This document shows positions 796-53,149 of a DNA stretch of 64,000 bases, piece by piece. The DNA is from Takakia lepidozioides. Its lineage: Eukaryota > Plantae > Bryophyta. Within the stretch, counting starts at the first letter, position 1. The number at the start of each line of letters is the position of its first letter. The stretch covers positions 20,770,001 through 20,834,000 of the forward strand of contig CM060734.1 of NCBI GenBank assembly GCA_030704615.1, in the 5' to 3' direction. Under the pieces are notes generated by a model. That model ran no database searches, had not been told where the DNA came from, and was given only the letters and a program-made list of their open reading frames with translations. The position numbers were made by a program, and so were the translations under genes.

Positions 796-1521
796 TGTCG
801 CGGCCCTTTGCCTTGAGGGCAGGGGGTCGGGACGCAGAGGGGCTGCCCCTGTGGTGGGGGCAGTGGCAGCAATAGGTACGGGGGGCTGAAGCACCCTTGA
901 GTGCCCAAGGCACTCAAGGAGGCGGAGGCGCTCACTAGGTGGAGCCCCGCACACCGGGTTGCGGTGGGGGTGGCTCCACAAGGGGTGGTGGTAGCTTAGT
1001 GGGACTTAGTGGGGGATGGCATAGGACTCACCATGGGGCGGAGACCTGGTGGTGGGAGTCGTGGGGAGTCTTGGGACTCACCACGGTCCAATGGGGCTGT
1101 GGTGGGTGGGCCAAGACTCACCGCGACTCATCACCGGGAATCGAGGGTCTTCGTGGTGGTTCGCCATAAAATGGCATGGTTGTTTGTGAAACCCCCGCGG
1201 ACAGTCACATAAGTATATATAGGGAGTAGTAACCCCGAGAATGGTGCAAGCCCGTTGGTGACCAAAAACTAGTGAGTAAGCAAGCGAGCCGGAAAGCGAC
1301 CAAAGAGTGGGGAGCTATTCTGGACTGCCATCTACCAAAGGGAATTTCCACTAGGCCCAAATTGGTGGAGGGTCTGTTGGGGGAAGAAAGGGGGACCGTT
1401 ATGTCCTGGTGAGCAGCCGAAGCTCCGAGTTGGCCCGGCGGCCAGGTTGGGAGTTAGGCGCACGCATCAAAGCGAGTAACTATGACTTGAAGGGGAGCTT
1501 ACCGAAGTGAGGTGCGCGACA
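796..1521 (+). repeat. 5' LTR of A1
   Basis: Termini are TGTCGCG...CGCGACA. Homologous to 34381-35106 and 40617-41338 (reverse complement). Confidence 0.92.
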
Positions 1522-1523
1522 CT

Positions 1524-1535
1524 TGGTATCAGAGC
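1524..1535 (+). promoter_or_regulatory. Primer binding site (tRNA-iMet)
   Basis: TGGTATCAGAGC lies 2 nt after the LTR end. Confidence 0.92.
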
Positions 1536-1576
1536 TTAGAGTTCAGTACGCGATCGTCATTGGGATCGGCCTCATC

Positions 1577-4500
1577 ATGGGGTCGGGCAAGCCAAAGTGA
1601 AAGCGGAACGACCCGAAAGATGATGATCCTGGTGAGCCCGATGGGGATGACGTGTCACCGAAGCGGCCATTTGAGAAAGCGATGTATGCTTTTGAAAATG
1701 AGGCCACTCAAGAACGGGAGGAATCTGAGGAGTCGGAGCCCGAGGAATCTCTGAGAGCTCCGACAGACCAACAGATGCCTCCCATGCCAAAAGCCTTTTG
1801 GGAAAGGTTGTTGGCGCAGTTTGGTGGGACGTTGAAAGACGTGTTGAAGGCGGCTAATGTCACTTCCACTAAGGCAAAATTTAAGGTGAAGCCTAAGGAA
1901 CCCGGCACCTTCGAGGGCATCCAAAATCGGAAGGCACTCAACACATGGCTCTTGGAGCTAGAGCAGTACTTCCGGGCGGCCAAGTTGAGTGATGAGGAAT
2001 GGGTGGAATGGGTGGAAGTGGCTCCCACCTATTTGAGGGGCTATGCTCAACAATGGTGGCAAAAACGCCTTCACGACCGAGGTCCAAACCCAGAAACCTT
2101 GAATTGGAGTGGGTTCAAGGAACTGATGAAGAGACAGTTTGTGCCCCTCAACGCGTCCTGGCTTGCCCGGGACAAGATGAGGAATCTGAAGCAAACGGAT
2201 GACATTCAAGGATATGTTCAGGCTTTCAATGTGCTATTGCTCGAAGTCGCGGACATGGCAGAACCAGAAATGGTCTTCAATTTTGTGGCGGAACTGGCCC
2301 CATGGGCCAGACGGAAGTTGGAGGAGAAGCCACCTAAGACTTTGAACGAGGCAATTGAGAGGGCTGAATGTTTCTCGGATGTCCCTAGAGGCGAAAGACA
2401 AGGCCATACGGAGCTGAACCACAAGAAGACCCAGCGGGAGGGTGACACCTTTTGACCGGAAAAGAAGTGGGATAGGCCACGCGGTGACAATGGCACTTGG
2501 AAATCAAAGGGAGGGCCTTCACACGCCAAGACGACACCCGGTGCTCCAAAAGGAAAATCAGGTGCGACACCTTATGGCGGACAAAATGTGACCTTCGATG
2601 GAGTGTGCTTCAATTGTGGGGAGTCCGGGCACATGGCCAAGAAGTGTACGAATCCCCGGCAATTGAATGTGACTCGGGCAACCACGGAGTTGTCCGAAGC
2701 TTCCATCAGCCGCTTGGTGGAGGTGGTGGTCGCCAAGACTTGCAAGGTAGGCAACTACTCTTGTGAGTTGTATCAGGAAACTGGCGCCTTGCGTAAAGGG
2801 AGTCAGTTACTGTTTGTGAGTGGGATAATCTCCGGAACTAACGTGTCATTGTTGGTGGACACAGGAGCGTCGCACTCCTTCATGACACCGGCAACGGCAC
2901 GAAAGCTGGGACTCTCGACGAGTGATGTGGGGGCCTCTATTGAGGTGCGTTCTGCTAAAGGAGAACCACAATTGGCGACGAGGTTGGCGTTCGATGTTCC
3001 TCTTCAGCTCGGGAGTTGGGAGGGACGTGAGAACTTCACCATTTGCGACATCGATGGAGTGGATCTCATTTTGGGGATGACATTTTTTAGCAGATCCGGA
3101 GCGGTCATAGATGGCCGCAAGAGGGTAGTCACACTACTGTGTGGGAATGGTGGCGAAGTTTTACGAGTGTCGGAAATGCCCAACCCCGTGGGAGGGCGAA
3201 TAAACCTTCTGTCAGCAAGGGAGTGGGCCGTGGAGGAGTCACACGAGCCCCAATTTTTGCTTTATGTAAGACAAGTGAAGGGAGAAGGCGATGGGGAGCC
3301 GAGCCCAGATTGGATCAAGGGGATTTTGGAGAAATACTAGGATGTGATGCCGGAGGAATTACCAAGCGGCTTGCCAGCGCGAAGAGGAGTTGACCACAAG
3401 ATTGAGGTGATACCGGGATCGGAGCCGCCTGCCAAGGCGCCCTACCAATTGAGTCACAGAGAGTTGGTCGAGCTGAAGACTCAGCTCAAGGATCTAATGT
3501 CAAAGGGGTACATCCGGCCGAGTAAGTCACCTTACGGAGCCCCGGTGCTACTCGCAGACAAGAAGGATGGGACGCTGCAGATGTGTGTCGATTACAGGGC
3601 TCTAAATAAGGTGACTATAAAAAACTAGTACCCTTTGCCAAGGATCAACGACCTCTTTGATCGGTTGGTAGGAGCAAAGTATTTCAGCCGGATCGATTTG
3701 CGCTCGGGCTACCATCAAATTCGAGTGGCGGAAGGAGACGAGGAGTAGACCGCGTGCAGGACAATGTATGGTTCATATGAGTTCTTGGTGATGCCTTTTG
3801 GGCACACCAACGCACCCGCGACCTTTAGCACGCTAATGAACAGCCTTTTCCAGAAGTGGTTGGATGACTTTGTGATCGTGTACATCAACGACATCTTGGT
3901 GTACTCGAAAACAAAGGAAGAGCACCTGGAGCACCTAAAAAGGGTGTTCCAGAAATTGCGGGAAGAGAAGTTGTATGCTAAAGCTTCAAAGTGCAAATTC
4001 GGGTCACGAAAGTAGAGTTCTTGGGGCATGTGATTACACAAGATGGGATCAAAATGGATGACAGAAAGGTGAGGGCGATTTTGGACTGGGAGCCTCCGAC
4101 TTCGGTCACGGGAGTGCGATCCTTCCTAGGACTCGCCTCCTATTACCGGAAGTATGAGAGAAATTTCGCCATGATCGCGGGGCCGCTGTCAGACCTCATG
4201 TGTAAATCCAAAGTCTGGGTATGGAACACCTTTTGTGGCCAAGCTTTTGCCGAGTTGAAGCAGCGGATGGCGGAAGCTCCAGTCCTCAAAATTCCGGAGT
4301 TCGACCGGCCATTTGAGATCCATACGGATACGTCGGACTTCACAATTAGGGGTGTACTCATGCAGGATGGACGTCTAGTGGCTTACGAAAGTAAGAAATT
4401 GAATGAAGTGGAGCGACGGTGGCCTACGCACGAGAAAGAAATGAAGGCGGTGGTGCATTGCCTTGAGCTTTGGCGCCACTATATTGGTTCCAACCCGGTG

Positions 4501-6128
4501 AAGGTGTTCACGGACAATGCCACAGTGAAGTATTTTGCCACGCAGCCTAAGTTGTCCCCAAAACAAATTAGGTGGCAAGACACTTTGGCACTGTTTGACG
4601 TGGATATCTAGTACAAACTGGGACGGGACAATGTGGTGGCCGATGCTTTAAGTAGAAAGCAGCAGCTCATGATGGTGTACAGGGGCGAGACGGCGTTCCA
4701 AAGGAAGATCCGGAAGGCTTACCGGAAGGATGAGATGGCGAAGTCCGTGATGCGGGACTTGAGGATGGGGGTTAAATTGCAGTTCCACTTGCAAAATGGA
4801 CTGCTCTGGTACAAGCAAAAGCGTCTCTACGTGCCGAAGGGAGGGATCAGAGATAGTCTCTTAAGAGAATGCCATGATGGTCCGCTTGCGGGCCACGGCG
4901 GAGCCAAGCGCACCGCGGCACTCTTGAAGAAAGAGTATTTCTGGCCCAAACTGATATGTGAGTATGTCAAGACATGCACCACATGCCAACAAAACCAGAG
5001 CGAGTACAAAAAGCAAGCGGGGCTGTTACAACCCTTGCCGATTCCAGAGGGGTCTTGGGAAAGTGTCTCGATGGATTTCATGACTGCTATGCCGCTGTCA
5101 AAAGGATTCGATGCAATCATGGTGGTGGTGGATAGGTTCAGTAAAATGGGCCATTTCATCCCCACCAAGGAGATGGCAACGGCACAGGAGATGGGGCGAC
5201 TTTACTTCGCCCATGTCTTCAAGCATCATGGACTCCCGAAGGATATTGTCTCGGACCGCGATCCAAAGTTTACGAGTAAATTTTGGAGGGCACTTTGGAA
5301 GAAGATGGGGACGAGGCTCAAGATGAGCACCGCCTTCCCACCTACGACAGACGGCCAAACGGAAAGGGTGAATTCCGTGGTGAAGCAGATCTTGCGGAAT
5401 TACGTGTCAGCGGACCAATCGGACTGGGTGGAGCACTTGGACGCGGCAGAGTTCTGTTATAATAACACAAAACACCCGCAACGGGTGTTTCCCCCTTTCG
5501 TATTGGTCTATGGAAAAGCACCTCTAGTGCCGACAAGTTGGGCTACCCAAGACGTTGAGGAACCGGCAGCAGCGGCAGTGCTGGAAGAACGCGATCGTTT
5601 GTTGAAGCTCGCAAAGTACAACATTGCCAAAGCTAGGAAACGGTATGAACGGCAAGCAAATCGGAAGCAGAGGGAGGTTAAGTTTGAGGCAGGCACGGAG
5701 GTCTGGTTGAGCATCAATTTTTCGACTACCTCCGGAAGTGAGTCCACCCTCCGTATGCGGGACCCTTTCGCATCCGGAAGGTTATGAATGAGTAGTATGA
5801 ATTGGAGCTGCCGGCAAACAGCAAGGTGCTACCGGTATTCCACGTCTCCCTTTTGAAGCCTTACTTCAAAGATGAAGCGCATCCGAATCGGCATCAAATG
5901 TTGCACCTGCCACCTGTGCTGTTGGATCATGAAAATGAACCTGAGTATGAGGTGGAGGCAGTGCTTAAGTCGAGGAGGTTCAAGAATCAAGAAACGGAGT
6001 ATCTCGTGAATGGAAGGGCTATCATATCATCATGTGGAGCATCTCGGGTGCGTGCCTCAGAAATGAGAAACGCATCCGAGGCGGTTGCAGCTTTCGAAGG
6101 GCGACCTCAAAAGCGGAAGAAGCGTTGA
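1577..6128 (+). pseudogene. A1 gag-pol (Gag, CCHC knuckle, protease, RT, RNase H, integrase, chromodomain) with stops and frameshifts
   Basis: Motifs [36 protein letters not shown] (YIDD mutated), AYESKKL, SMDFM, VSDRD, DGQTER, PVFHVSLLK and EYEVEAVL. Confidence 0.92.
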
Positions 6129-6641
6129 TGGGGACATCAACCTTGGAGCATGGGGGAGGAAATGCATGCTTAGCCCGGCTTAGCTAGCTCAAGAATCCGA
6201 TTGCAAAACTTGTATTGTACAAATTTTGTTATAAATGAAATGGTTTCCAAATGTTGTGTGTCATATTTTGTTTGGAATGGTGATGCATGGTTTGGTTGGC
6301 TAGTGTGTAGAATGCATGCTAGCTTACAAAAGTGGGAGAGGTAAATTGGGTTAATCGTGTATTTGCGCAGTGCTAAAATCGGGTGACTCCCACCCAAGGG
6401 GCAAGGAAACTTGCGCCTTCTTTGGGAGTTCACGTGCTAGTTCGCACCTGGCGCGTGCGTGTACTACAACTGCACTACCGAGGGGGTTGTCTTGTAGTGC
6501 GGGCTAACGTGGAAGCTACATGCTTCCGTTCACGTACTATAATCGTGTAGCCTCGGGACGAAGTCGAAGTGCAGCTTCGGCGTGTTCCTGTACCTCAGGC
6601 CAACATTCCAAGGCGGACCCAATTGTAGTGATTAGCGCACC

Positions 6642-7229
6642 ATGGTGACATCTGGAGTTGTCATGTTAGACGCCCAGGATGGCATTTTCTATTTGAGTGG
6701 ACCGAGAAGCAAGAGGTACCGGCCACTGCGAGTCTTGTTGGACTCGGGAGCTCAGCCATTGATGCTGGGCAGAGCTGCTATTGCAGGCTTGGGCCTCACG
6801 GAGGCGGATATGGAGCCGTGCCCTTTCCAGATACAGACATCTCTAGGAGGATTAGAGCAGGCTCAGGGCATGACACGGCGGGAGTTGGGGATCAGACTAC
6901 AGCCGGATCATCCTACAGATGGCTCAGTGATGAGAGCCATGGCCATTGTGACAGACGCGGTCTCGTACGATGTCCTTGTTGGTGGGGGTGTGGTGTACCC
7001 CATGGGCTTCACCCTGGATTTTTTGGAGGAGTCAGCTTCCTATAGGCCTGGATGGCAGTCAGGGGAGGGCCGATGTGTGCAGCTCCCTGTGACGTTCATA
7101 GGAGGAGTTACAGTTGCCCAGCGAGGCAAGATGTCGATACTGACAACATTCACAGCTGCAATGAGTTGGCCTGGAGAGTTGCTTGAGGGCAACGCTCATT
7201 CAGAGGATGTGTCGCCTCCGGGAGAGTAG
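6642..7229 (+). pseudogene. B1 retropepsin aspartic protease region
   Basis: RVLLDSGAQ catalytic motif and a SYDVLVG C-terminal motif. Confidence 0.85.
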
Positions 7230-7458
7230 GATGACATGTATGGTATGGTGGAGTTGCCTGCCATGGTTGCTCACACTCCATTGTGGGGCTCGAGCAAGGA
7301 CTTGCAGCGGGTTGCTGATCGACGGGTGCAACAAGCCTGGGTAGAGGCTTTTGTACCGTCAGGAGAGGAGGACAGTGTAGGGATTGCACTAGGACCACCT
7401 CATTTGTCAGCATTGGACACCACACCGATCGTATGGTAGTGTCCGGATGAAGGCATTG

Positions 7459-8400
7459 GACGTGTTTGGCGGGATCAGCACCGGATTGGCTGTTGTGCTA
7501 CATGCAGGTATATGGGTACGGCGTTACTTGTATGTAGAGAGGGATGAAACTGCACGACGCGTCTCACTCCGTCATGTTGCTCAGTTGGTGCAGTAGTACC
7601 TTGAGTTGTTGCTGGTGTCTGCGGTTCGTGGATATCAACAGGCCTTGCCAGCAGACATTTCGTTGCTGGGGGCACAGGATCTGGAGCGGGTTGGCTCCAT
7701 TGATTTGGTAGTGGCAGGTTGGCCCTGCAAAGGGTATTCATCAATGGCAATGGATTGCGAGACTCGAGGTCGGGTCTGTTTTGGGAGATGGTGCGGGTTT
7801 GCGCCACTTACAGCTTCATCAAGCTGTATCTCCAGCATACATCTTGGAGAATGTGCCACTGATGGGCAATTCTCGGGCCAGGGTGATGGCCAGTGTGCAT
7901 CAAGTCCGGTCGTGGCTTGGGTCAGCAGTGTTGCTGGATGCAGTTGCAGTAGGGTTGCGGGCTCATCGTCCACGATTATGGTGGACTAACTTGATGCCAT
8001 CCGCATTGCTCAAGCGTGCATTTGATGGGGTGCAGCGGCCAGCACACCTCACAGTTGATAGCATCTTAGATACAGGGAGGCAGTCTCAGCATGTGAGACA
8101 CGATGACCCTTCGCCTTTGGCAGTGGTCAACAAGGTGGGTCAACCACGAGCAACACTACCTACACTGCGCAGCTTCCCAGGATCACATGCTTTCCGGGAT
8201 AGTGGATCTGGGCTCCTGTGGGATGCTCACTTGCAGCAGTTAGTGGAGCCTAATGCCGACGAGCAAGAGCGGGCTATGGGTTTTTCTATTGGGACAACGG
8301 CAGTGCCTTCTCTTTCTGAGGCATCACGTCGTCAGGTGTTGGGGCAAGCGATGGATCTCAATTGCTTGACCTGGATTATCAGCTTGGCTATGGCTGAGCA
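7459..8400 (+). pseudogene. B1 C5 cytosine DNA methyltransferase domain (DNMT3-like) inside the polyprotein
   Basis: Manual translation across frameshifts gives motif I DVFGGISTGL, II YLYVERD, III ADIS, IV DLVVAGWPCKG, V GLRDSRSGLFWE, VI YILENV, VIII AHRPRLWWTNL, IX EQERAMGF and X RRQVLGQAMD. Confidence 0.9.
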
Positions 8401-8779
8401 ACGTAGAGTGCGGAGTGCACTCCCCTTGACGGTCTCTCTGCCTACCGAGACGGTACAGGAAGTGGGTGGGGGCGAGCCGGTGAGGACCACGGGGTGTAGA
8501 CATCCATGGCACACGTGGGAGGTGCTCGAGGTTCAGAGGGAGTTGGCAGCCAAGGCGGCTGTGATGGATGAGGTTGGGGATTCTTCTCGGGTTGAGGAGG
8601 TCCTCAAGGATGAGATGATGGGGCAGGATGAGGCCTTGTCATTGACTGAGTAGGCAGGGAGTACTGCTCATGAGGTTGCGGCATAGCAACCTCGGGACGC
8701 GTCTCCTACCTCTAAGTCTGCTGGACTTAATGTTGCAGTTACGGAGGACAATTGAGAGCCTGACATTGGACCCATTATC

Positions 8780-9226
8780 ACTGGAGGAGAGAGACGACGT
8801 ATACGGCGGTTCCTGAGGGCTTACAAGAATTGCTTTGCCTTCAGTTTGAATGATTTGGGAGCACTGAAGGGTCAGGAGATTCGTATTGACGGACACGCTA
8901 ATCTTTCGGAGACCCTATAGATACAGTGACATGGAGAGGTCTTTGATTCAGATGAGGACTCAAGATCTCTGGGAGGCTGGTTTGGTGGAGCTTTCTGGTG
9001 GAAAGTATGCTTCAGCCACGGTGATGCTAGCCAAAAATGATGTCTATGACAATTGGACGGAGAGACGTATGTGCGGTGACTACCGGGCTGTAAATCGTCA
9101 GACCAAGTCCGATAAGTATGCCATGCCCACACCTGAGGAGATCTTTGATGCCATTGGGCATGCCAAGGTCTTTAGCACTCTGGACTTGCAGTCCGGATAT
9201 CACCAGTTGCCGATCAAGGAGGCGGA
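8780..9226 (+). pseudogene. B1 reverse transcriptase, N-terminal half
   Basis: Motifs RRPYRYS, RMCGDYRAVN and FSTLDLQSGYHQLPI. Cut by the B2 insertion. Confidence 0.88.
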
Positions 9227-10019
9227 TGTTATGGTTTTATTTGTGATTAGTTAGAAATAATTATTTCTAACTAATTAGTACATTATATATTTATATTTGT
9301 ATTTTGTTGGCATTGGGACTTCATTTGGTTCCATGTGCCAAGTGAGGTGACGAACCTCACTTAGGACGTGGGGAGGGTGTTGCAAGGTTTGCAAGAAGAA
9401 AGCCTTGTGGTGTTTATGTATTCAAGGAGAGCCTTATTGAAAAGTTTGAGAGCTTGTGAAGAAGCTCTTGTTCTGCAAGTGTTGCAGGGTTTGAGGAGTT
9501 CAAGAAGAGTTCGGGTGTTAAGGAAGCAAGCGGTGCATGTGTGGAGCATGTGTGGAGCATGGTTTCAGCTTGTAGGAGTCTTCAACTTCATGCTTAGGAG
9601 AGCTATGAGTGGAGGTAGACATTTGATTTCTCTTTGGGGCAGAATAGTGTATTTGTGGAGCATGCTTTGAGTTGGGGTTTCAATCCCAAGCTTGGGAAGA
9701 GCATGTCTATGGAAGTGGCAAGTGCAGGGCTGGATTAGGAGCTCTAAGAAGTGAACTATGGCCATAGAAAGAAACACTATGAGTGCATGCGATGGCTCGA
9801 AGAGGGTATGCCATAGAAAGCTCAATAGCTTGTTCTATGTTTGTTTCAATAAGTTCCATAGAGAAAGAGAGCTTGTTGTGTGGCAAATAGCTTGCTCAGG
9901 GAGTTAGATGCACTCTTGGTGGCCTATTGATGCTCAAGAAACCAAGAACAACACCTCTGGTTGCTCCATAGAAGCCATAGCTCGTTGCAGCAATCGCAGA
10001 GGCAAAGCGGCGCAAACCC

Positions 10020-11190
10020 TAGCTTGGGAACGCGTGGGAACGCAAAAGAACGCGTGAGAACGCTTGGGAACTCCTTGGGAACTCGTGGGAACATTGTCCC
10101 AGAGTTGGGAGTACCACCGTTGTCCAATCGGATGAACTATTGAGCCAGTGGATGAAAATCGGCGCTCCTGGATGAGAATCGGTTGCAGTGGATGAAACTG
10201 TGCCAAAGGATGAAATCTCGTCAGCGGATGAAATATTGCGCTATCGGATGAAAAATCACGGCGACGGATGAAACTCCGTCAGTGGATGAAATCGTGGCAG
10301 TGGATGAACTATCGCGCTATCAGAGGAAAAATCACGGCCAGATGAAACTGCATCAGCGGATCAACTATCGTGCCATCAGATGAAAAATCGTGGAGACGGA
10401 TGAAACTGCGCCAGCGGATCAAATCATGCCAGTGGATGAAATATCGCACCGACGGATGAACTATCGCGGCGGATGAAGTATCGGACCTACGGATGAGAAA
10501 TCGCGGTTTTGGATGAAATTTGGTCAGTGACGGATGAAAAATCGATTAACTATGGATATTTTTGGAGTCTTTTGGGGCCTGCTTTGAGGACTATTTGGGG
10601 TCTATTGAGGCCAATATCTTACAGGTATTGGGGCCTGTTTGAGGACTATTTGGGATCTATTGAAGCCAATATCTTGCAGGCTTGTGGAGCCTGCTTGGGG
10701 TTGTTTGAAGGACTATTTGGGGTTTTTTGAGGCCAATGTTTGGCAGGCCTGTGGAGCCTTGTGAGGGCTGGTTGGAGGACGATTGGAGGTCTTTGGAGGC
10801 CCATATTGGGCAGGCTTATGGAGTTTTCTAAGAGCTCTTTGGGGGACTATTGGAGGTCCTTGGGGTCAAATACTTGGCAGATTTGAGGAGCTTCTTAAGG
10901 GCTGTTGGAGGTCCTTGGAGGCCAATATTTGGCAGATTTGATGAGCTTCTTAAGGGCTGTTGGAGGACTATTGGAGGTCCTTGGAGGCCAATACTTGGCA
11001 GATTTGAGGAGCTTCTTAAGGGTTGTTGGAGGACTGTTGGAGGTCCTTGGAGGCCAATACTTGGCAGATTTGAGGAGCTTCTTAAGGGCTGTTTGGAGGA
11101 CTCTTGGAGACCATATTGGGCAAGCTTGTGGAGCTATCGTGAGGGCTGGTTGGAGACCATGGAGGCCACTAATTGGCGGGCGCCTAAGGC
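10020..11190 (+). repeat. Three adjacent tandem arrays in the B2 leader
   Basis: GGGAAC-type ~10-bp units (10020-10105), GGATGAA-anchored ~20-bp units (10130-10545) and TTGGAGG-based 55/66-bp units (10560-11190). A mirror copy lies at about 28780-29860. Confidence 0.85.
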
Positions 11191-11790
11191 CTTTTGGTGG
11201 ACTGTTCAGAGTCCAAGTTTGCGAACTTCTTGAACCTCGGTGGGTCTATGTTAGGGGCTGATTGAGGGCAGATTTCAGAAGTTCATGGCAATAATTTGAG
11301 GGCTCTTGAGAGTTATTTGAGAGGTTATTTAAGGATAGTCTTATCTATTGCTTAAGCAATAGTGAATGTGAAGATAGGGGGAGTAATGGGATAAGAGCAT
11401 TCTGGGCTTAGAGATTGCTTTAGCTTCTCTTCTCTATAGTCTTCCATCATTCTTATAGGCCAAAGCTTTTCCGTAAGCGGATGTAGAGCTGGTTTGGATA
11501 GAGACTTGGCCATCTTGCAAGTTTATTGAAGCCGCAAGGAGATCGATGGATTTAAGCTGTGGGAGATGTTGTTGTTTGAGTTTCCTGTGTTTGGATCCTC
11601 CTCCCACACATGCATGCTTGACTGTGCGCCATGCTAGTTTGGTTTGGGCGCTTGCTTTTATAGGTGGTTGTGCCGGAAATATTGTGGCCGGCCAATCCTA
11701 GAGCGTACTGTCGGTGGTGAGACTGGGGTGATGACCAGCAGACCATCATTGTTTCTCTTATGGTGAGGCTGGGTTGATGACCAGCAGACC

Positions 11791-13611
11791 ATAGGAGTGC
11801 CTGCGGTGGATGCAGGTGCAGGTGCAGGTTCAGAATATGAATCTAGTATTCCAAACCATAAGCCGCAATAGGTTCTCTACCAGGTTACCTTGTGGAAAGG
11901 AGGATTACAGACGAGTTGATCGCCGGTTTGACTGTGAGTTTTCATCACGGAGGTGCCACCAGTTGCTGAGGAGAGTGCCAGTACAAGCACCAGCGATACT
12001 AGTGGGTATACAAGACAAGGTGTGCGGTTTAGGCCACCTTCACCTTCAGTGTCTTCTGAGGAAGGTTCAGACTCAGAGTTAGGAGGATTCTCGCCGAGGG
12101 TGCAAGCCATTTCCGTGCCATTGTTGTGGGATAAAATGGAGGAAATGTATGGAGCTACCAAGGGGCCACGTCGGTACTCGGGAGTTGTGGGCACCATCGA
12201 GCTTGATGATTTCATACAGGAGTTTGATAGTTGGTGTGATTTGCAGCAGATGCGCAATCCACAACTGTTTACGCCTTTTATGGCGTGGAAGGGGCTGTTT
12301 CAGCACCTTGAGGGGCCGCCTATGGATGACTACCATGAGTTTAGGCGGGGAAATGAGGTGGAGATTGAGGAGTGGCGACAATATTGGTCACCTGACTATG
12401 TCTCCATCACTAGAGGCACAAGGGCAGCGGCGATACCAGCTACACCAACATCCCCAACTGCAAGCACTAGTAGTGGGACAAGTAAAGATGGAGCTGGGAA
12501 ATCCACTCAAGCTCCTGTTGCAGCACCAGCACCCGTGCCTGCCTTTAACCCAGTTATGGAGTTCTTTGAGGAGTTGAGGAGAAACTACTAGGGAATAAGG
12601 ACGGAGAAATTGCGGAGCTTGCAAGAGTTCCAGCGCAAGCCTACTGAGAGTTTGAGAGAGGCTTACACGCGCATGAGGCGATTGATAAATGTAACCCAAG
12701 GGGTTACGGAAGCTCAAGCAGTCCAATTCTGGTATGGGATATTGGACAAGGAGCTAAGGAGAAGGGTGCGGGATGCAACTCTCCTACAAGTAGACCAACC
12801 CACCTTAGCAAACGTGTTTTTGCTGGCAGAGCGGATAGAGCTCAATATGGTGGAGGAACGAGTGGTCATGGTGGGGTTTGGTAAGGAGACACAACGAAGT
12901 GGGGCTCCTAGCCAACAACAACCACTACCCCAACGTGCTCAAGGCAACAAGGGGGTTCAGGCGAAGCCCAGGGAAGGACAGAGAGGATCTCAATTGTAGA
13001 GGTCACTTCCTTCATTCTCAGGCCAACAACAGTCGGGTGGGACATGTTGGGATTGTGGAGGACCCCATGTTAAGAGAGATTGCCCGGAGAGAGGCAAAGG
13101 GCCGGCACAGTCACAGCCTACACAACTACAGTATGGGCATTGTGGCAAGTATGGGCATGAAGAGGCCCATTGTTATGACTTGCATCCTGAGCTACGGCCA
13201 GGCCAGTTCCAAGGGAAAAATGGTGGCCGAGGACGAGGCAATGTAGTCCAGAGAGGTAGAGGAGGCAGAAGTCGCGGTGGAGGTTGTAACCAAAACCAAG
13301 GAGCACAAGGTCAAGGTCAAGGTCATGACCAAGGCATGGTGGATAGGCTTGCCCAACTAGAGCAACGTCTTGCTGCCATGGCCACTACTAATGTGGCGTC
13401 AGCTCCAAGGCCTGAGGTTCAAGCCCCACCTGTACAACCTCCTATGCCTAGGGAAGACCAGATTGGTATGGGCTTCATGTGTGGAGCCGCACTTGCTGGA
13501 CCATTGCATGTGGACTGTGCAGCTGCTGTCACTCGAGCAGCAACGCGTGCTCCTGAGCCAAGAGGAGCAGATGTGGATTTTGATCCACAAAGAAGGGAAG
13601 CAAGTCGATAG
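11791..13611 (+). pseudogene. B2 gag with two zinc knuckles
   Basis: The frame-1 reading extends upstream to about 11791 through stop codons that look CGA/CAG-derived. Knuckles CWDCGGPHVKRDC and HCGKYGHEEAHC. Confidence 0.75.
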
Positions 13612-14050
13612 ACAAGGCTTCCACAGTCTTTCACATTGGCTGAGACAGTGCCAACTACGCCATCGATGGTACCGGCTCACCCAAGTGTGTCAGAGGTAGA
13701 GCCACGAGTATCAGTGGGGATAGTTGGTATGGCTCGGGAAATGCCAGTGGGTGGTGCTGTAAAGCAGGGTGCAGCCAGTACGTTGTTGGGCGGCTACGCG
13801 GTTTTGCCAAGCTCCATTGTTTTCTGCGATGACCATTGCAATGCCGGGGATTCGGCCAGCTGCTGTGTTCAGACTAGCAGCTAGACTCTGTGAGAGTGGT
13901 GATGCATCGGCACTATCTGCGGGGATAGCGGATAATGTGCAGTGCATGGATATCATGGACTCAAGGGTGAAGACAGCCACAGCTGCACCATAGCAAGCGG
14001 CAGCTGCAAGGTTGCAGGAGATGTCAGCTAGACCAGCCATTGAGCGTAGT

Positions 14051-14724
14051 ATGGTGACTCCTGGGGTAGTCATGGTGGACAATCAGGATGGTATGTTTTA
14101 GTTGGGTGGCCCAGCCGGGAAGAGGTTTAGGCCACTGCGGGTCTTGTTGGACTCGGGAGCACAACCATTGATGTTGGGAAGAGCAGCAATTGTAGGCTTA
14201 GGCCTTACAGAGGTAGATTTGGAGCCTTGTCCTTTCCACATTCAAACATCTTTGGGCGGTTCAGAGAAGGCACGAGGGATTACACGCAATGAGCTCTTCA
14301 TTCGATTGCAGCCGACCATCCTACGGACGGCTCAGTCATGAGAGCTAAAGCCATTGTTACGGACGCGATGTCTTATGATGTGCTTATTGGTGGGGCTGTG
14401 TTATACCCCATGGGCTTTACTTTGGACTTTTGGGAGGAAACGGCATCCTATATGGCAGAATGGCAGTTAGGAGATGGCCGACGTGCACTGCTCCCAGTGC
14501 GGTTTATTGGGAATGTAGCGGTGGATCATAGGAACATGATGCCCACATTGGCTGCATTATCAGGGGTGGCGGCTTGGGGTGGTGAGCTCTTGGAGGGCAA
14601 TAGCTATGCAGATGATAGGCCATCACCTGATGAGGACAAACAATTGGCATACAAGGCTGATTTGCTTCCTCATGTGCCTGTGCATATTCCACTTGGGGTA
14701 CGGTTGGGAATTTGCATCGAGTAG
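14051..14724 (+). pseudogene. B2 aspartic protease region
   Basis: Motifs RVLLDSGAQPLMLG and SYDVLIG. Confidence 0.85.
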
Positions 14725-14859
14725 CAGGCGAGTGTGTGCACCAAGCATGGCGGAGGCCTTTCCATTGGTGAGTGTGGGGAGTTCAGTGACATCACCTGAA
14801 CCTCCTGAGTTAGCTCCTTTGGACACAGTGCCCATTACTTGGCAACCACCTGACTCAGG

Positions 14860-15815
14860 GATTTATTTGCTAGACCTGTTTGGAGGCATGAGCACTGGGC
14901 TTGCAGAGTGTTGCAAGCAGGGATTAAAGTACGCAAGTATTTGTATAGTAGAAGGACTGAGATTGCTCGGCTATTTCCATGTGCCACATTTCCTGCCTCA
15001 CACACCGTATCTTGAAGAGTGTTGCCCTCTCAACAGTTCAAGGGTATCAAAGGCCTTGGCCCGCAGACATTACCTTGCTGGGAGCGGATATTTGGCAGCG
15101 GCAATGGTCATTACTTGTGAAACCGGATGTGCTTGCCAATACACTCTCCCGCAGTCATGGGAATGGCTTGCATTGATGCACGATCGCATTGTGTTTGTGG
15201 GGAGATGTTGCGAGTGTTGCGGGACTTGCAGACGAAGAATTGCAACCTCTAGGCTACATCTTAGAGAATGTTCCTCTTATGGGGGATTCTCGGGCCAGGT
15301 TATTGCCCTTGTGCATCATGTGCAGTCTTGGATTGGATCGGGCGGTGCTATTGATGCATCACGGTGGATCACGCGCGCATCGTCCTCGATTGTGGTGAAA
15401 CCAATCTTGCACCACCAGAGCTGCTCAAGAGAGCATACATTCCATTCATCGGCCACCCAATCTCACGGTTGAAGGCATTTTGGACCAAGGGAGACAACCA
15501 CAAGGGGTGCGACATGATACCGTTGGCCACCTCTAGCAGTGGTCAAATCGAGTGGGGGGCCAGCCACGGTTGGGGCTTTGCCTACGCGCATGAGCTTTCC
15601 CTCAGCGCATGCTTTTCGAGACAATGGTCCTGGATTGATTTGGACAGTGTGCTACAACCAATTGGTGGAGCCCAATGCGGATGAGCAGAGCGGCAATGGA
15701 ATTTGCCACCGGCACTACAGTATGCCAGCTCTGTCAGAGCATCACGCCGCCAAGTGTTTGGGTCAAGCAATGGACCTAAATTGCTTGACATGGGTCATTG
15801 GTTTGGTGCATGACT
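14860..15815 (+). pseudogene. B2 C5 cytosine methyltransferase domain (heavily frameshifted)
   Basis: Motifs IYLLDLFGGMSTGLA, PADIT, GYILENVPLMG, SRAHRPRLW, EPNADEQ and LGQAMDLNCLTWVI. Motif IV is garbled (GCACQ). Confidence 0.82.
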
Positions 15816-16289
15816 GAGGCAACGGAGATTGCAAGCATTGATGGCTACTCTGTCACTCCATTGGATATGCATCGCTCCTCCCTGCCTAACCGGACGGTGG
15901 AGGACAGTGAGTGGGGGCGAGCACAGGATCGTGGGTTGCAAATACCATGGCAGATGTTGGGATGAGATGCACAAGAGAGAGTCATTGGATCTCTCAAGCA
16001 GCAGTATGAGGAGTGGGGAGAGCCATGGACTGAGGATCAGTTGGAGGCCAAGGTGACCAAGGTTTTTGAAGAGGTTTGTAGGATGTTTCTTGCGCATAGG
16101 ATGTCTCAAGGTGGCTATGGCGGAAGCAAGTGGAGGCTACGCCATCAGTCAGATTGGGCGGACAAGCCCAAAAGGGTTGCTATCTAGCAACCAAGGATTC
16201 GTCTCCTACCTCCAAGCCTGGGTACCCAAGGTTGCAGTCACTGAGGACAATTGGGAACCAGATGTTGGATCTACAGTCACCCAAGAGAG

Positions 16290-19280
16290 AGACGGAGGAT
16301 CCAACAATTTTCTAAGGGCTTATAGAATTGCTTTGCCTTCAGTTTGAAGGATTGGGGAGTTTGAAAGGTCAGGAGTTCGTATTGATTTGGCAATGACACG
16401 CGCCAATCTTTCAAAGGCCCTACCGGTATAGTGACATGGAGAAGTCATTGATCCAGTCACGGACTTTGGAGTTGTTCAAAGCTAGATTGGTGGAGTTGTC
16501 AGATGGGGGTATGCCTCGCAACGGTGATGCCAGTTAAGAAGGATATCTAATGGCATTGGACAGAAAGAAGGATGTGTGGGGACTATCGTCCTGTGAACCG
16601 TCAGACTAAGTCCGATAGATATGCCATGCCAACTCCAAAGGAGATCTTGATACCATTGGGCATGCCAAGGTGTTTAGCACATTGGACTTGCGATCCGGTT
16701 ACCACCAGTTGCCATTCCATCAAAGGGCTGACAAACAAAAGACACATTCTGGGGATTGACCAACATGGGAAGGATTGTTTTACCAATGGCATTTCTTACC
16801 ATTTGGGTTGAAGAATGCTCCTGCAGAGTTTCAAAGGGTCATGGATAAGATTCTCGCGGGGCTAGACTTTGTCCGGTGCTATATTGATGACATCATTGTC
16901 TTTTAGTGCTACGGTTGAGGATCATGAGAGACACCTTCAGGTGGTGTTTCAGCGCTTGAGCGCACGAGGGTTGAAAACTGCACCCCGAAAGTGCAAGTTC
17001 TTCCACAATCAGAATTGTATCTGGGCCACATGATATACCCTGGAGGTTGGGTGTTCAATAGACAAAGGTGGAGGCCATTGGCATGGCATTCCACGCCCCA
17101 TGGATGTGAGCCATAGTTTCGTGTTTTCATGGGATTGACAAACTACTATCGACGGTTGGTCAAGGGATTTAGCAACATTGCAAAGGCTCTTACCAAGTTG
17201 ACAAAGGTGGGTCAGGAGTGGCAGTGGGGGAGGAGCAGGAGGAAGCCTTTGAGGAACTCAATGTTCGATTGACTTCTGCTGCACCTATGTTGAGGCGGCC
17301 TAGTTCGGGGGCGGTCTTTTCCATCTACATACGGATTTGAGTATGCTGGGGATTGGAGCAGTGCTCACACAGGTGGATGATGAAGGAAGGGGTTCGTAGT
17401 GGCATATGCTAGCCGCTCGAACAATGATGCCGAGGCGAAGTATAGTTTCCTATGAAGGGAGCGTCTAGCTGCAGTATGGGCATTGGCACATTTCAGATAT
17501 GGCAATCTCTTCAATCTCTTCACCCTTGTCACGGATCACCAACATTGAAGTGGTTGATGGAGTCAGACAAGCTTACAGGAAGCTTGCTCGGTGGGCTACT
17601 TATGCTTCAAGAGTACGACTTCCAGGTGGTGCATCGAGCCGGTATTGTCAATCGGATGCAGATGGATTGGGTCGTAATCCATGCACAGCGAGCATGATGA
17701 TATTGGAGCTCGTTGGCATGGTGAGACGGATGAAGATGGTGCCAGGATGGCATGCATCGGCCTTTTTTGTGCATTCTAGCAATGGGAGCTCAAGCTGGTT
17801 CATCCCATGCGATTGGTCATGTAGATAGCGTGCATGACAATCCAGAGACTAGTGAGAAGTTTTGGTGGTGCTAAGGATGTGCATGAAAGGCAACAGTGTT
17901 TGGCATACCTTCGTACCGGAGAGACAGCAGCTAGTGTGACTGCTAAGGAGAGAGATCCGGTCCTAACAACGAGCCAAGAGGTTCAAGTGGGAGGGGACTC
18001 ATCTACTCCGGGTATGGGAGGATGGACGAGTGGGATTGTGCCTCATCCAATACAACGAGTGCGATTGTACGCCATGCCCATGAGGAGTTGGACATTTTTG
18101 GTCGGCGCACTCATAGTTTGCTGCAAGGGCAGTAATTGGTGGCGGGGCATGCACACGGATGTGCAACCAGTTAGTGGCAAGGTGCATGGTGTGTGATAGA
18201 GTACGGGCTTCTTTCAACGCTCCTACTCCACAATTGCATCCTTTACACCATTATGGGTTTGGGCTATCGTTGGAGTCCTGACTTTTCAGGCCCATTGCCA
18301 CTGACAATCGCCATAACAAGTATGTGCTGGTGATGGTGGAACACTTCTCCAAATGCATTGAACTGGTGGCATTGCCTGACAAGGCAAGTGAGGGGGTTGC
18401 GTATGCATTCTTAGATTGAGTGCTTAGCCATTTTAGTGCTCTAGCCGAGGTACTCACGGACCAGGGGAGAGAGTTCTTGGGGGAGTTTCAGGCTTTGTGT
18501 GAGCAAGCCTTGATAGATCACCGCACTACTTCTTGGGATCATCCTGAGGCTGATGGCTTGCGGAGAGAGTTGTTCAGACAGTCAAGAGAGGTTTGCGCAA
18601 GTACGGTTTGCAGAAGGGACACCTAGGAGATTGGGACCTGCAACTGCCTTGGCTAGCTATGGGCTATAGGTTCAGCAAACAAGCTTCACTTGCCTCCTTC
18701 TCACCTTACTTTTCTTTCTTTCGGCCGAGAGCCGGATTTGCCTGCATCTATGATCCGGATGTGTGGAACAAGCATGTGCCCAGCGAGCAGAGTTGTTCAA
18801 GAGAGTCATGCCTATGGCTTTTGAGAACCTTGCATTGCCCAACACTGAGACACATTGAGGTACGTCACTATACGTGGAGGGGGATATTGGCCAAGTGTTT
18901 GGCGTTTCCACCCTGGGGACTATGTGTATCTGTAGCAGACAACGCCTACGACCTTGGATGTCACAGCAGGACGTGTGATTCTAAGGGTTAGGGAGGTGTT
19001 GCCTTCAGGAGTGTTGATTCAGGAGGGTCGAGATGGCATGGTATGGAAGGACCATATGCGCAATTGTGCGCCATGTCACCTTCCACATGTGGATGTGAAG
19101 ATAGATTCTAACCTTGCAGTGGTACCTGCAGGGTTGCGTTGCATGCTATGTGGGCATGCTGGTGGCGCCGCAACCATGTTGGTGTGTGACAAATGCTCAA
19201 GGGGGTGGCACATGGATGCTTGACACCGCCACTTGAGGAGGTTCCTATCGGAGAATGGTTTTGTCCACGATGCCTTGGAC
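16290..19280 (+). pseudogene. B2 RT - RNase H - integrase - PHD finger (many indels)
   Basis: Motifs [37 protein letters not shown] and LRCMLCGHAGGAATMLVCDKCSRGWH...EWFCPRC. Confidence 0.85.
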
Positions 19281-19540
19281 AGAGGCAGTGGGCATGACAA
19301 TGGTGAGGCGCAAGTGACCCAAGGTCTACTAGTGGGGCTTCAATGCCACGGATACTCACTGAAGATCATGGATTGTATGAAGGCGACTAAGATGGGACTA
19401 ACGTTTGCACCCGGCCACTTGATCTATCGACTTCAGGTGTTGGGACTTGTGCGATTGAAGACCAAGCGATGATCTTATTGGGGTAGATACTTGCAAGCTA
19501 TCCGGTGTTAGAGGGACCTAATCACCAGCTAGGGGGCGAT

Positions 19541-19626
19541 TGTGGCGTGGCTTTCTTAGGACTATATGCTAGAAGTGTGGTTGGGACAGCGATGTATGTT
19601 GTGGCACGATGCTTAGGTGCACGACA
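19541..19626 (+). repeat. Repeat X copy 1 (~86 bp, TG...CA), directly after the PPT
   Basis: Sequence tgtggcgtgg...gtgcacgaca recurs at 19977-20061. Confidence 0.85.
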
Positions 19627-19628
19627 GC

Positions 19629-19975
19629 TATCATGGTTTTATTTGTGATTAGTTAGAACTAGTTATTTCTAACTAATTAGGATATTATACATTTATATTT
19701 GTATTTTGTTGGCATTGGGACTTCATTTGGTTCCATGTGCCAAGTGAGGTGGCGAACCTCACTTGGGACGTGGGGAGGTTATCTCCACGTGAGACGTAGG
19801 CAGGCTCGTCTTCTTCTAGTCGAGCCTCCCGAGGCCTCTCTCGCCGCCATAGCTCTAGTACTTGAGATGGAGAGTGGGTGAGGTCTGTATGGTGGAGTCC
19901 TTTAGCAAGGTGCCATTGGCTTGACTTATATAACGTGATAGAGTGGTTTCTCCTCTTTTCACCATTTCTGTATCA
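19629..19975 (+). repeat. Internal copy of the 5'-terminal repeat C of B2
   Basis: Matches the sequence from 9227 onward and the reverse complement of about 30598-30944. Contains TATATAA near 19927. Confidence 0.85.
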
Positions 19976-19976
19976 T

Positions 19977-20061
19977 TGTGGCGTGGCTTTCTAGGACTAT
20001 ATGCTAGGAAGTGTGGTTGGACAGCGATGTATGTTGTGGCATGATGCTTAGGTGCACGACA
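19977..20061 (+). repeat. Repeat X copy 2, the 3' terminus of B2
   Basis: Direct repeat of 19541-19626, followed by the TSD CGGA. Confidence 0.85.
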
Positions 20062-22457
20062 CGGACAAACAGAAGACGGCATTCTGGGGGAAGAACGCTT
20101 GAGAGCGCACAGATTGAAATTACATCCAGGGAAGTGCAAGTTCTTTCACAACTAGATTGAGTATCTGGGCCACATGATATATCCTGGAGGATTGGGGATG
20201 CAGCAGACTAAGGTAGAGCCATCGCACAGATTCCACGCCCCACGGATGTGAGCCGAGTTCGAGCTTTCATGGGGTTGGCGAACTACTATAGACGGTTCGT
20301 CAAGGGATTTAGTGCTATTGCAAAGGCTCTAACCAGCTGACCAAGGTAGACCAAGAGTGGCAGTGGGAAGATGAGCAAGAGCGAGCTTTTCAGGAGCTCA
20401 AGGCGAGGTTGACCTCGACGCCCATCTTGAGACGACCTATCAGGGGGCGTCCCTATCAGCTGCATACAGATTGGAGCATGCTGGGGCTTGGAGCGGTGCT
20501 CACACAGGTGGATGATGAGGGAAGAGAGTTCGTAGTGGCTTATGCTAGCCGCTCAAACAACGCTGCAGAATCTAAGTATAGCTCATATGAGGGGGAGTGC
20601 TTAGCTGTAGTGTGGGCCATGACACACTTCAGGTGCTATCTATACGGCAATCTCTTCACCTTTGTCACGGATCACCAGCCACTCAAGTGGTTGATGGAGT
20701 CAGACAAGCTTACGGGGAAGCTTGCACGGTGGGCACTTATACTCCAGGAGTATGACTTTCAGGTTGTGCATCGACCGGGTTTGGTCAATAGGGATGCGGA
20801 TGGATTGAGTCGCAATCCATGCACAAGCCAGCATGATGACACTGGAGCTCGGTGGCATGGTGAGACGGATGAGAAGATGGTGCCGGGATGGCATGCATCT
20901 GTTTTTTTTTGTATTTTGGCATCGGGAGGTCAGGTTGGACCTACAATAGGGATGACTGTAGACGGAGTGTCTGAGGACCCTAAGGCTAGTGATGAGCCAG
21001 GTGGTGCCAGAGATATACATGAGGATTCGGTTGTGTTGGACTACCTCTGCACTGGAGACACGGTAGCTAGTGTGACTGCCAAGGAGAGGGATCGGATCCT
21101 GCAACGAGCCAAGAGGTTCAAGTGGGAGGGGATACACCTGCTTCGAGTGTGGGAGGATGGTTGGGTGAGGATCGTGCCTCACCCAACACAGCGTGCACGA
21201 TTAGTGCGGCATGCCCATGAGGAGTTGGGGCATTTTGGAGTGCGACGCACTCATAGTTTACTGCAAGGGCAGTATTGGTGGCGTGGTATGCACACATAGG
21301 TGCAACAGTTCGTGGCTAGGTGCATGGTGTGTGACAGGGTGCATGCTTCATTCAACGGCCCTACACCATAGTTGCATCATTTACCCATCATGGGATTGGG
21401 CTACAGGTGGAGTCTTGACTTCGCAGGGCCGTTGCCACTGACGATGCGCCACCACAGATATGTGTTGCTGATGGTGGAGCACTTCTCCAAGTGGATTGAG
21501 TTGGTTCCATTGCCTGACAAGGCTAGTGAGGGGGCTGCGTATGCATTCCTGGATCGTGTGCTTAGCTGATTCGGTGCTCCAGCTGAGGTACTCACGGACC
21601 AAGGAAGAGAGTTCTTTGGGGAGTTTCAGGCTTTATGTGATAAAGCCTTGATAGACCACCGTACCACTTCTCGGGATCATCCTGAGGCCGATGGCTTGGC
21701 AGAGAGAGTGGTACAGACGGTGAAGAGGGGCTTGCGCAAGTATGGCTTGCAAAAGGGACACCTAGGAGATTGGGATCTTCAGGTACCTTGGTTAGCCATG
21801 GGCTACAGGTTTAGCAAGCAAGCATCACTTGCCTCCTTCTCACCATATTTCCTTCTCTTTGGCCGAGAGCCGGATTTGCCTGCATCTATTCGCAGGGAGG
21901 CTGCAGTAGTCCTCAACCTTGATGATCCGGATGTGTGGACACAAGCATGTGCCCAGCAGGCAGAGTTGTTCAAGAGAGTCATGCCTATGGCTTTTGAGAA
22001 TCTTGCTATTGCCCAACACCGAGACACATTGAGGTATGCCACTATACGTGGAGGGGGATATCGGCCAGGTGTTCGGCGTTTCCACCCTGGGGACTATGTG
22101 TATCTGCAGCAGACAATGCCTACGACCTTGGATGTTACAGCAGGACGTGTGATTCTAAGGGTCAGGGAGGTGTTGCCTTCAGGAGTGTTGATTCGGGAGG
22201 GTCGAGATGGCATGGTATGGAAGGACCATGTGCGTGATTGTGCGCCATGTCACCTTCCACATGTGGATGGGAGGATAGATCCCAACCTTGCAGTGGTACC
22301 TGCAGGGTTGCGTTGCATGCTATGTGGGCATGCTCGTTGTGCCGCCACTATGCTGGTGTGTGATCGATGCTCAAGAGGTTGGCACATGGGATGCTTGACA
22401 CCACCTCTTGAGAGGGTCCCTGATGGAGATTGGTTATGTCCACACTGCTTGGGATAG
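20062..22457 (+). pseudogene. B1 RT tail (catalytic core deleted near 20090), RNase H, integrase and C-terminal PHD finger
   Basis: KTAFWG jumps directly to RLKLHPGKCKF. Then LHTDWS, AYASRS, EGECLAV, HEELGHFG...CMVC, SLDFAGP, LTDQG, GLAER and a C4HC3 PHD at 22314-22448. Confidence 0.9.
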
Positions 22458-22718
22458 TGGCAGTGGATATGACTAGTGGCAGCTAACAAGACATGGGAGG
22501 CCAAGCTCATAGGAGTCAATACCCGAGATCTCAGGCTCAAGTTCATAGGTTGCAAGACGGCGACTAACGATGGGGTAACTCTTGTACCCGGCCTCTCGAT
22601 CTATCGAGTTTGAGTGTAGTAGGGACAGTGGTGGAGGACTTAGTGAGGCTATGGCCACTATCACATCTTGTGACTACCTGGACTTAGAGGGACCTAAGCG
22701 CGAGCTAGGGGGGGTGAT

Positions 22719-22948
22719 TGTGATGGACTAGTGGCTGCACTAGTGGTGGACTAGTGGTTGCACTAGTGGTGGCTAGTGACAGCCTAGTGGTGGGCTAGTG
22801 GCTGCACTAGTGGTGACTAGTGGTTGTCTAGTGGCAGCCTAGTGGTGCACTAGTGGTGGACTAGTGATAGACTAGTGTTTGGTGTGCACATGTGTTGTGT
22901 GGTTTTGGACAGCGATGTAGTTATGTAGCGATATGTATGTGCACGATA
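22719..22948 (+). repeat. 3' terminal repeat/LTR of B1 containing a CTAGTGG array
   Basis: Follows the PPT AGGGGGGGTG (22707-22716). Its 3' part (ggacagcgatgta...gtgcacgata) is homologous to repeat X. Confidence 0.75.
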
Positions 22949-40561: not shown

Positions 40562-40616
40562 GATGAGGCCAATCCCATGGACGATCGCGTACTGAACTCT
40601 AAGCTCTGATACCAAG

Positions 40617-53128: not shown

Positions 53129-53149
53129 CTCCCACTCAATTAAACCATA

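Follow-up and report, generated by a model that had tools for sequence, protein, structure and literature searches.

What is a cytosine methyltransferase doing inside a retrotransposon of a moss, and is it a lasting part of the element or an accident of one copy? The question arises from a 64,000-nucleotide stretch of the Takakia lepidozioides genome (GCA_030704615.1, contig CM060734.1, 20,770,001 to 20,834,000, forward strand), here called the window, in which a preliminary description had placed a DNMT3-like domain between the protease (PR) and reverse transcriptase (RT) of a Gypsy element. Sequence and fold comparisons confirmed that the domain in this slot is a DNMT3-like, non-permuted cytosine methyltransferase (DNMT). 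In the element that we call copy 1, tblastn and a family HMM located it at 7444-8407 (+), motifs I to X, broken by frameshifts and stops, with the protease DSG motif upstream (6735-6755) and RT downstream (8756-9226), as described. Nine motifs between 7456 and 8362 follow one another in the canonical, collinear order that had been claimed, spread over three reading frames: motif I (LDVFGG) at 7456-7485, II at 7525-7548, III at 7651-7668, IV (VAGWPC, catalytic Cys at 7726-7728), V at 7752-7790, VI (ENV, Glu at 7847-7849), VIII (AHRPRLWWTNL) at 7961-7993, IX at 8261-8284 and X at 8327-8362. The reading frame is broken near 7456, 7743 and 7797, stops lie at 7437-7439 and 7594-7596, and copy 1 as assembled is unable to make the enzyme. 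Contigs of other copies differ from copy 1 at its break sites, so these breaks seem specific to copy 1 or to its assembly.

The identification does not depend on the broken frame. The family HMM, a profile of 194 relatives from which the window sequence was left out, scored 251 bits at 7799-8407 (E 4e-78) and 95.5 bits at 7456-7743 (E 9e-31), against a top score of -3.4 bits in five codon-shuffled windows, and an intact relative used as tblastn query recovered the copy 1 DNMT at E 2e-120. The Pfam profile PF00145, which had been proposed as a check, rose above its cut-off in neither of the two broken DNMT pieces of the window but matched 15 of the 18 relatives scanned; from NCBIfam, dcm alone matched, below its cut-off. 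Among solved proteins, the family profile was closest to DNMT3A (E 4e-22), followed by DRM (5e-13) and M.HhaI (1e-7), and DNMT3A/B were also best by fold (E 3.5e-15, TM 0.76 on the target, from a predicted model with mean pLDDT 65). The DNMT3A/B alignments are collinear, whereas that with DRM is limited to its permuted half; circular permutation, the hallmark of DRM, is absent from the family, in agreement with the earlier reading. The likeness to DNMT3 held up better than the likeness to phage enzymes that had been proposed alongside it. Of 136 phage records that matched, all were below 60% identity, and the 12 listed reached 23-31%, so a recent phage source is not supported; a search of IMG/VR viral contigs found no relative. 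The DNMTs of other retroelements are 33-73% alike to it.

Copy 1 extends from before window base 1 to about 22948. Its gag remnant (3-795, +), with the 5' end lost at the window start, was found by tblastn with Marchantia Mp4g09160 and is 79% identical to the gag of copy 2. Within this gag lies an unrelated chromovirus-like Gypsy (796-6633, +), truncated together with the flanking copy 1 part. The aspartic protease and a linker follow at 6636-7226 (+; LLDSGAQ at 6735-6755), identified by tblastn and by PF13650 at E 0.025, below its curated cut-off. Beyond the DNMT, the 5' part of RT (8756-9226, +) ends in the target duplication CGGA (9223-9226), where copy 2, a whole nested element with TG...CA ends and a heavily broken coding part, occupies 9227-20061 (+). 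CGGA flanks copy 2 on both sides (9223-9226; 20062-20065), and the RT of copy 1 resumes in register behind it, continuing at 20066-22454 (+) with the 3' part of RT, RNase H (RH), a DDE integrase (IN), an SH3-like domain and a PHD finger (PF17917, PF17921 and PF00628, the last at E 2e-9). The integrase residues D, D and E fall in 21408-21431, 21591-21614 and 21693-21716, the PHD finger at 22314-22448, and the element closes with a polypurine tract (PPT) and a single diverged B-like end (22707-22948, +). The preliminary description did not mention four features of these elements: PHD finger, split repeats, self-priming site and nested copy 2.

Copy 2 displays the order A-leader-gag-PR-DNMT-stop-RT-RH-IN-PHD-PPT-B-A-B and has no LTR pair. 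Its 5' repeat A (9227-9376, +) is truncated, with the promoter and self-priming part deleted, and its DNMT (14840-15811, +; tblastn, family HMM) is degenerate. The 3' end comprises the PPT at 19531-19538, B1 at 19539-19626, a 2-nt spacer (GC), A at 19629-19975 and B2 at 19975-20061 (all +). B1 and B2 differ by one mismatch and five gap columns, and the A|B2 junction is bridged by contigs of runs X1, X2 and X4 (three runs, one sample). A further 5' fragment of the family at 28241-30944 (-) retains a complete A (30944-30597) and the self-priming pair, with the site in A from 30765 and its complement directly after A. This fragment was ruled out as a clean solo LTR, since its inner flank is not the PPR gene. 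The 2.3-kb 5' leader (9376-11730; 28241-30500) contains two tandem arrays, of about 19/76-bp and of 55-67-bp units. At 27047-27622 (-) lies another integrase fragment of the family, the third, which shares 94% identity with copy 1, and a diverged A repeat with leader from a second subfamily occurs at 45310-46053 (-) and 63246-64000 (+), its self-priming pair showing compensatory changes. The family is very abundant in the Takakia genome: 23,033 run X1 contigs fall on the 2.6 kb at 6640-9227, a contig depth that is not a copy number. Rfam and ARAGORN searches gave no matches.

Other residents of the window were also mapped. A young chromovirus-like Gypsy at 34381-41338 (-) has LTRs that differ at 3 of 722 positions, and a copia element at 52822-57552 (-) has near-intact frames and LTRs 98.4% identical. 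PLS-type PPR repeats at 30945-33370 (+) are full of frameshifts and also internally duplicated, which, along with the density of indels in copy 2, suggests that some breaks are assembly errors. A host gene for an RMA-type RING E3 ligase lies at 60133-62007 (-), with its best named full-length matches in lycophytes (Diphasiastrum, 29-32% identity; Selaginella). Sequence comparisons placed the host among the streptophytes, and these matches make a seed-free land plant likely, with weak evidence for a vascular one. A further mobile element is represented by an open reading frame of 36-bp repeats rich in Glu, Gly and Ala (46075-46956, +) and a zinc-knuckle frame behind it at 47661-48533.

Although copy 1 is broken, the family has kept the enzyme. 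Among 194 full domains, the catalytic Cys is present in 190 and the ENV Glu in 193, and these two together with both motif VIII Arg are each kept in 189-193. The DNMT dN/dS was 0.10-0.12 in three near-intact pairs (RT 0.04-0.05, PR 0.09-0.12), 0.14 between copies 1 and 2 of the window, and 0.10-0.16 in all six unsaturated between-subfamily pairs, a level like that of PR and somewhat above that of RT. Six further pairs were saturated, and three pairs of close dead copies gave 0.39-0.65, a high value expected from post-insertion decay. These comparisons indicate that the family DNMT is under purifying selection, at a dN/dS of about 0.1, and the catalytic Cys and Glu, whose constraint had been proposed as a test at the outset, are among the residues retained. 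CpG depletion, measured as a possible trace of self-methylation, was not distinct in the family, with an observed/expected ratio of 0.49-0.57 against 0.52 in a host gene and 0.30 in the copia element.

The relatives extend well beyond Takakia. Named DNMT relatives occur in the land plants Calypogeia fissa (73%), Marchantia polymorpha (up to about 70%) and Sphagnum, and in the algae Klebsormidium nitens, Closterium, Scenedesmus and Cymbomonas, chlorophytes included; 522 clusters at 50% identity match the family DNMT at E <1e-30. In Marchantia, near-intact Gag-PR-DNMT frames are annotated as the hypothetical genes Mp4g09160 and Mp8g17980. In K. nitens, the protein KFL_013780020 has PR followed by DNMT; its alignment with the window piece covers 189 aa at 41% identity (E 5e-41). 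Among 80 metagenome loci, 58 of at least 4 kb were mapped for domain order; PR-DNMT-RT was the order in 44 of the 44 that showed all three domains, and 22 loci reach the PHD finger. Across 221 proteins, the DNMT lay between PR and RT in 66 and between RNase H and integrase in 99, and 56 were too short to place. The latter, RH|IN sister group (99 of the 165 placed) includes P0139 (Scenedesmus), P0175 (Cymbomonas), P0032, P0037 and others, and often reads GWEC and ENT in place of GWPC and ENV, the motif IV Pro being replaced by Glu in 59 of 99.

FastTree phylogenies of DNMT and RT, midpoint-rooted and limited to element domains from 26 of 57 RH|IN-type elements and from PR|RT-type elements, were broadly congruent. 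In both trees the RH|IN-type elements group as a single clade, suggesting that the DNMT was captured once, long ago, and that the domain moved later. Copy 1 groups with liverwort proteins and with the loci L002, L040 and L048 (support 0.92-0.93). The K. nitens elements are homologous and use the same slot but sit on a distant branch of this midpoint-rooted tree, which has no host outgroup. Contigs from other copies span the DNMT just as they do PR and RT.

Judging from the linkers downstream of the DNMT, a conserved stop separates Gag-PR-DNMT from RT-RH-IN-PHD in the subfamily of the window. Copy 1 has an in-frame stop in a TMV-type readthrough context, TAG CAA CCT, at 8684-8692 (+), and copy 2 has the exact UAG-CAR-YYA context (TAG CAA CCA) at 16185-16193 (+). 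Base 8692 is T in copy 1 and A in all of the summed run X1 depth of other copies (55 contigs), so CARYYA is complete there. An in-frame TAR-CAR-YY was present in 38 of the 40 linkers of the window's subfamily group, against a background of 0.08 per linker, and a scripted scan found it in 0 of the 22 remaining linkers (62 in total); the scan missed copy 2 through its indels, and this copy was then read directly. The 38 positive linkers include 34 close copies of one family and represent about five independent lineages. Exact in-frame UAG with CARYYA is found in copy 2, L043, L047, L048 and L049; the last base differs in copy 1 and in the L002 type, which reads CARYYC (5/6) with an ATG two codons on.

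In L043 and L049, open frames lie on either side of a single TAG, the downstream RT-RH-IN-PHD frame running for 1047 codons in the same phase, and the upstream frame of L049 is a whole Gag-PR-DNMT of 1369 codons that ends after the DNMT. Likewise, 29 of 49 PR-DNMT proteins end 57-181 residues past the DNMT domain. The initial view of a DNMT inside one polyprotein, in frame with PR and RT, thus needs revision: in intact relatives the domain is in frame with Gag-PR, with RT beyond the one conserved stop, and it closes the Gag-PR-DNMT frame at a likely leaky stop instead of simply lying within one Pol frame. The L055 subfamily (8 loci) has no stop and reads continuously through DNMT and RT, as does P0057. 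A long stem is also predicted 3' of the stop in copy 1 (8693-8800, +; arms about 8693-8714 and 8774-8800), beginning about 10 nt past the stop and with partner codons 80-100 nt downstream. The stem is predicted to covary between clades, since pairing between arms of the same clade (window/L002 or L043/L049) reaches about -19 to -27 kcal/mol, compared with -5 to -13 for arms from different clades; it is weaker in L047, L048 and copy 2, and whole-fold z-scores are weak to modest in most loci.

UAG-CARYYA is the TMV-type and UGA-CGG the TRV-type readthrough signal, and the TMV context allowed 6-10% readthrough in stable Arabidopsis lines and 32% in transient assays (PMC2754532, PMC4132726). The 3' contexts in the Takakia family and its relatives match these signals in sequence and are placed after the Gag-PR-DNMT of a retrotransposon. 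The stop after the DNMT is likely leaky, and the enzyme is thus predicted to be made at Gag levels. Such an amount is not essential, given that a stopless subfamily and chlorophyte-type elements with the DNMT inside Pol exist. Two Klebsormidium-like loci, L053 and L066, carry TGA CGG TTA, a TRV-type leaky context, just after motif X, at the place where K. nitens KFL_013780020 ends; a frame running on into RT past it was seen only in L053. This may be a second, independent readthrough signal.

The ends of the family consist of split repeats. The B-A-B 3' end is shared by copy 2 and 12 loci, and a lone B ends 7 loci; B before the 5' A, the mirror form A-B-A-coding-B, was seen in 0 of 26 5' ends. 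The mirror product would be expected from a circle, and its absence counts against one. Among 11 elements with both ends in view, seven have an exact 4-bp target-site duplication (TSD); the remaining four comprise one with a mismatch, one without a duplication and two ambiguous cases. All 13 B|A junctions examined are CA-NN-TG or one transition away, around a palindrome that is kept even where A and B are otherwise unrelated. In the 11 A|B junctions examined, A and B lie directly next to each other and share 0 or 1 base, the pattern predicted for end-joining. The 4-bp TSDs and the palindromic B|A junction suggest integration from a DNA circle; foamy-virus integrase is reported to cleave circle junctions of such a type (PMC1180852). 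That repeat A might be the LTR of some other element was ruled out, since in several subfamilies A and B enclose the coding region within a single TSD. Two copies of the form A-coding-B (L016:3596-13482 and L024:6206-14845) have 4-bp TSDs and no repeats, and may have arisen from one-LTR circles or by B-B recombination.

The bases after the 5' A contain no tRNA site. At 7 of 11 ends they contain an 11-17-nt perfect reverse complement of a site inside A, in three unrelated sequences, and at the other four a complement of 8-9 nt; in each of the six cases with a control, 0 of 50 positions reached the same match. A TATA box lies about 30 nt upstream of the self-priming site in L055, L060 and L070. 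These matches point to a Tf1-like self-priming site in place of a tRNA primer site. A TATATAA at 19927 is probably not a start signal, as it is downstream of the self-priming site. At the other end of the coding region, the chromodomain that marks chromoviruses after the integrase is absent, and the PHD finger stands there instead. Its nearest solved relatives are the PHDs of CHD4, ATXR5, KDM5B-PHD1, PHF21A, BAZ2 and UHRF1, which read unmethylated H3K4.

Retrotransposon-borne DNMTs of the kind to which the preliminary description linked this locus were reported by de Mendoza et al. (2018, PMC5890265), and the link is sound: KnitGypsy-Dnmt3 of Klebsormidium nitens has the same split repeats. 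The two share Gypsy domains, an intronless non-permuted Dnmt3-like domain, DIRS-like A-coding-B-A-B repeats and a Ka/Ks <0.2, so that a Gypsy-DNMT3 with split repeats is already known from Klebsormidium, and later papers of the group cite it as streptophyte Gypsy-DNMT3. However, its host is an alga and that of the high-copy Takakia family a land plant; its DNMT is given as lying in one ORF with RT, whereas the Takakia subfamily has a conserved stop between them. The Takakia family carries a PHD finger, a word absent from the main text of PMC5890265, and the available text does not mention a self-priming site, TSD or palindromic junction for KnitGypsy-Dnmt3.

Other systems resemble the family in part. 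SymbioDIRS-Dnmt3 shares A-coding-B-A-B repeats, a Dnmt3 domain beside RT and a likely circular intermediate (PMC5890265), but it and other split-repeat DIRS elements use a tyrosine recombinase, in contrast to the DDE integrase, TG...CA ends and 4-bp TSDs of the Takakia family. The hallmarks of the DIRS order, a tyrosine recombinase and no target duplication, are thus not those of the family. PAT, TOC1 and Ngaro are split-direct-repeat DIRS elements. The EpiLTRs/DAM-LTRs likewise combine Ty3/Gypsy, a DNA methyltransferase and a chromatin reader, but their DNMT is sister to DNMT4 and comes with a DAM domain and a chromodomain; their authors regard it as distinct from streptophyte Gypsy-DNMT3 (bioRxiv 10.64898/2026.05.21.726589). 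Tf1/Sushi and Tcn1 also lack a tRNA primer site and have sequence after the 5' repeat complementary to a site within it, but, unlike the Takakia family, are flanked by ordinary paired LTRs, carry a chromodomain and lack a DNMT (PMC6317226). The Chlamydomonas Gypsy-7a_cRei is a green-lineage Gypsy with a PHD finger and an intergenic insertion bias, with paired LTRs and no methyltransferase listed (10.1101/2022.06.16.496473). Judged by target sites and ends, the features of Phygy (REXdb) were not found in the family, in which 0 of 7 TSDs are NCGN and paired LTRs are absent.

From this anatomy we propose, at roughly even confidence, that DNMT packaged at Gag level methylates the element's own cDNA and that the PHD finger directs new insertions to chromatin unmethylated at H3K4. 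Transcription would begin within repeat A; on the resulting RNA, translation would mostly end behind the DNMT, with a minority of ribosomes reading through into RT-RH-IN-PHD. In the particle, the protease would free the DNMT, and reverse transcription, primed by the RNA on itself as in Tf1 and otherwise standard, would yield a linear cDNA B-A...B-A that closes to a circle. The DNMT would methylate the double-stranded cDNA, likely at CG, and the integrase would open the circle at the palindromic CA-NN-TG B|A junction, leaving A-coding-B-A-B and a 4-bp duplication. With the PHD finger steering insertion to nucleosomes without H3K4 methylation, the new copy would arrive pre-marked like the heterochromatin it lands in. 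The anatomy, its conservation and the selection on it are observed here, and every dynamic step of this cycle is inferred from them. De novo methylation of CG in yeast is reported for the related SymbioDIRS-Dnmt3 enzymes (PMC5890265). The one published assay of a family member, that of the Klebsormidium enzyme, gave none in the same host, a result that its authors deemed inconclusive.

To the idea that a host DNMT3 retrocopy or a separate nested insertion landed by chance in one element we give practically no credence: the window is indeed a nest of insertions and copy 1 is broken, but the shared slot (44/44 informative loci, and named liverwort, moss and algal proteins), the broadly congruent trees and the contig coverage refute it. 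A rather unlikely reading, though one to be taken seriously, is that the enzyme, made at Gag levels, enters the nucleus and acts mainly in trans, methylating the target site, sister copies or the host genome and so controlling copy number or reshaping the methylome. Gag-level amounts would exceed the need of one cDNA, the family is very abundant in Takakia and the PHD finger offers a chromatin link. However, a benefit in cis accounts more readily for the purifying selection seen in each lineage, the DNMT lies inside Pol, next to the integrase, in 99 of 165 placed proteins, and the K. nitens methylome is ordinary and plant-like (PMC5890265).

It is improbable that the domain serves the particle by binding nucleic acid or modifying RNA and is not retained as a DNA methyltransferase. 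The negative yeast result for the Klebsormidium enzyme and the Pro to Glu change in the RH|IN group would fit such a role, but the near-complete retention of Cys, Glu and both motif VIII Arg does not, and sequence and fold are nearer to DNMT3 than to DNMT2. Methylation of the cDNA could also stand while other steps differ, with Pol made through an internal promoter, splicing or reinitiation, or with the split repeats formed without a free circle; this too we consider quite doubtful. In Tca2, the junction alone reportedly directed no readthrough in yeast and held a minor promoter (PMC2194720), and in the L002 type an ATG follows closely behind the stop; yet copies 1 and 2, L043, L047, L048 and L049 are without that ATG and keep the frame and the CAR-YY context, and L053 and L066 use a different known leaky context at the matching place. 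As for the circle, the missing mirror integrant, and single-B copies that can come from B-B recombination as well, would suit its absence, but the abutting A|B junctions fit end-joining.

The Takakia family is thus a land-plant relative of KnitGypsy-Dnmt3, of a kind previously described only in algae. Our literature search, outside which most subscription papers lay, found no description of a land-plant Gypsy-DNMT3 family; nor did we find in print the leaky stop with its stem, the self-priming, the palindromic junction or the second DNMT slot between RNase H and integrase. What a retrotransposon gains from a silencing enzyme was not settled in 2018, and the Marchantia members make this question testable in a genetic model, with the stop after the DNMT providing a concrete dosage prediction. 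Taken together, split repeats and a palindromic junction suggest that a Gypsy integrase can insert in a non-standard way. In plant genome surveys the family can push up the number of DNMT3 genes counted, and LTR finders that look for a matching pair of ends are likely to overlook it. More tentatively, and at less than even confidence, these elements may belong to an unrecognised, green-plant-wide lineage of integrase retroelements, ranging from chlorophytes to seed-free land plants, that prime themselves, integrate from a circle at an internal palindrome, pack a Gag-level DNMT3 into their particles by programmed readthrough and deliver pre-methylated DNA into heterochromatin through a PHD finger. 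If so, paired-LTR finders would pass over the lineage, and where it reaches high copy number some of the host's methylome would be its work.
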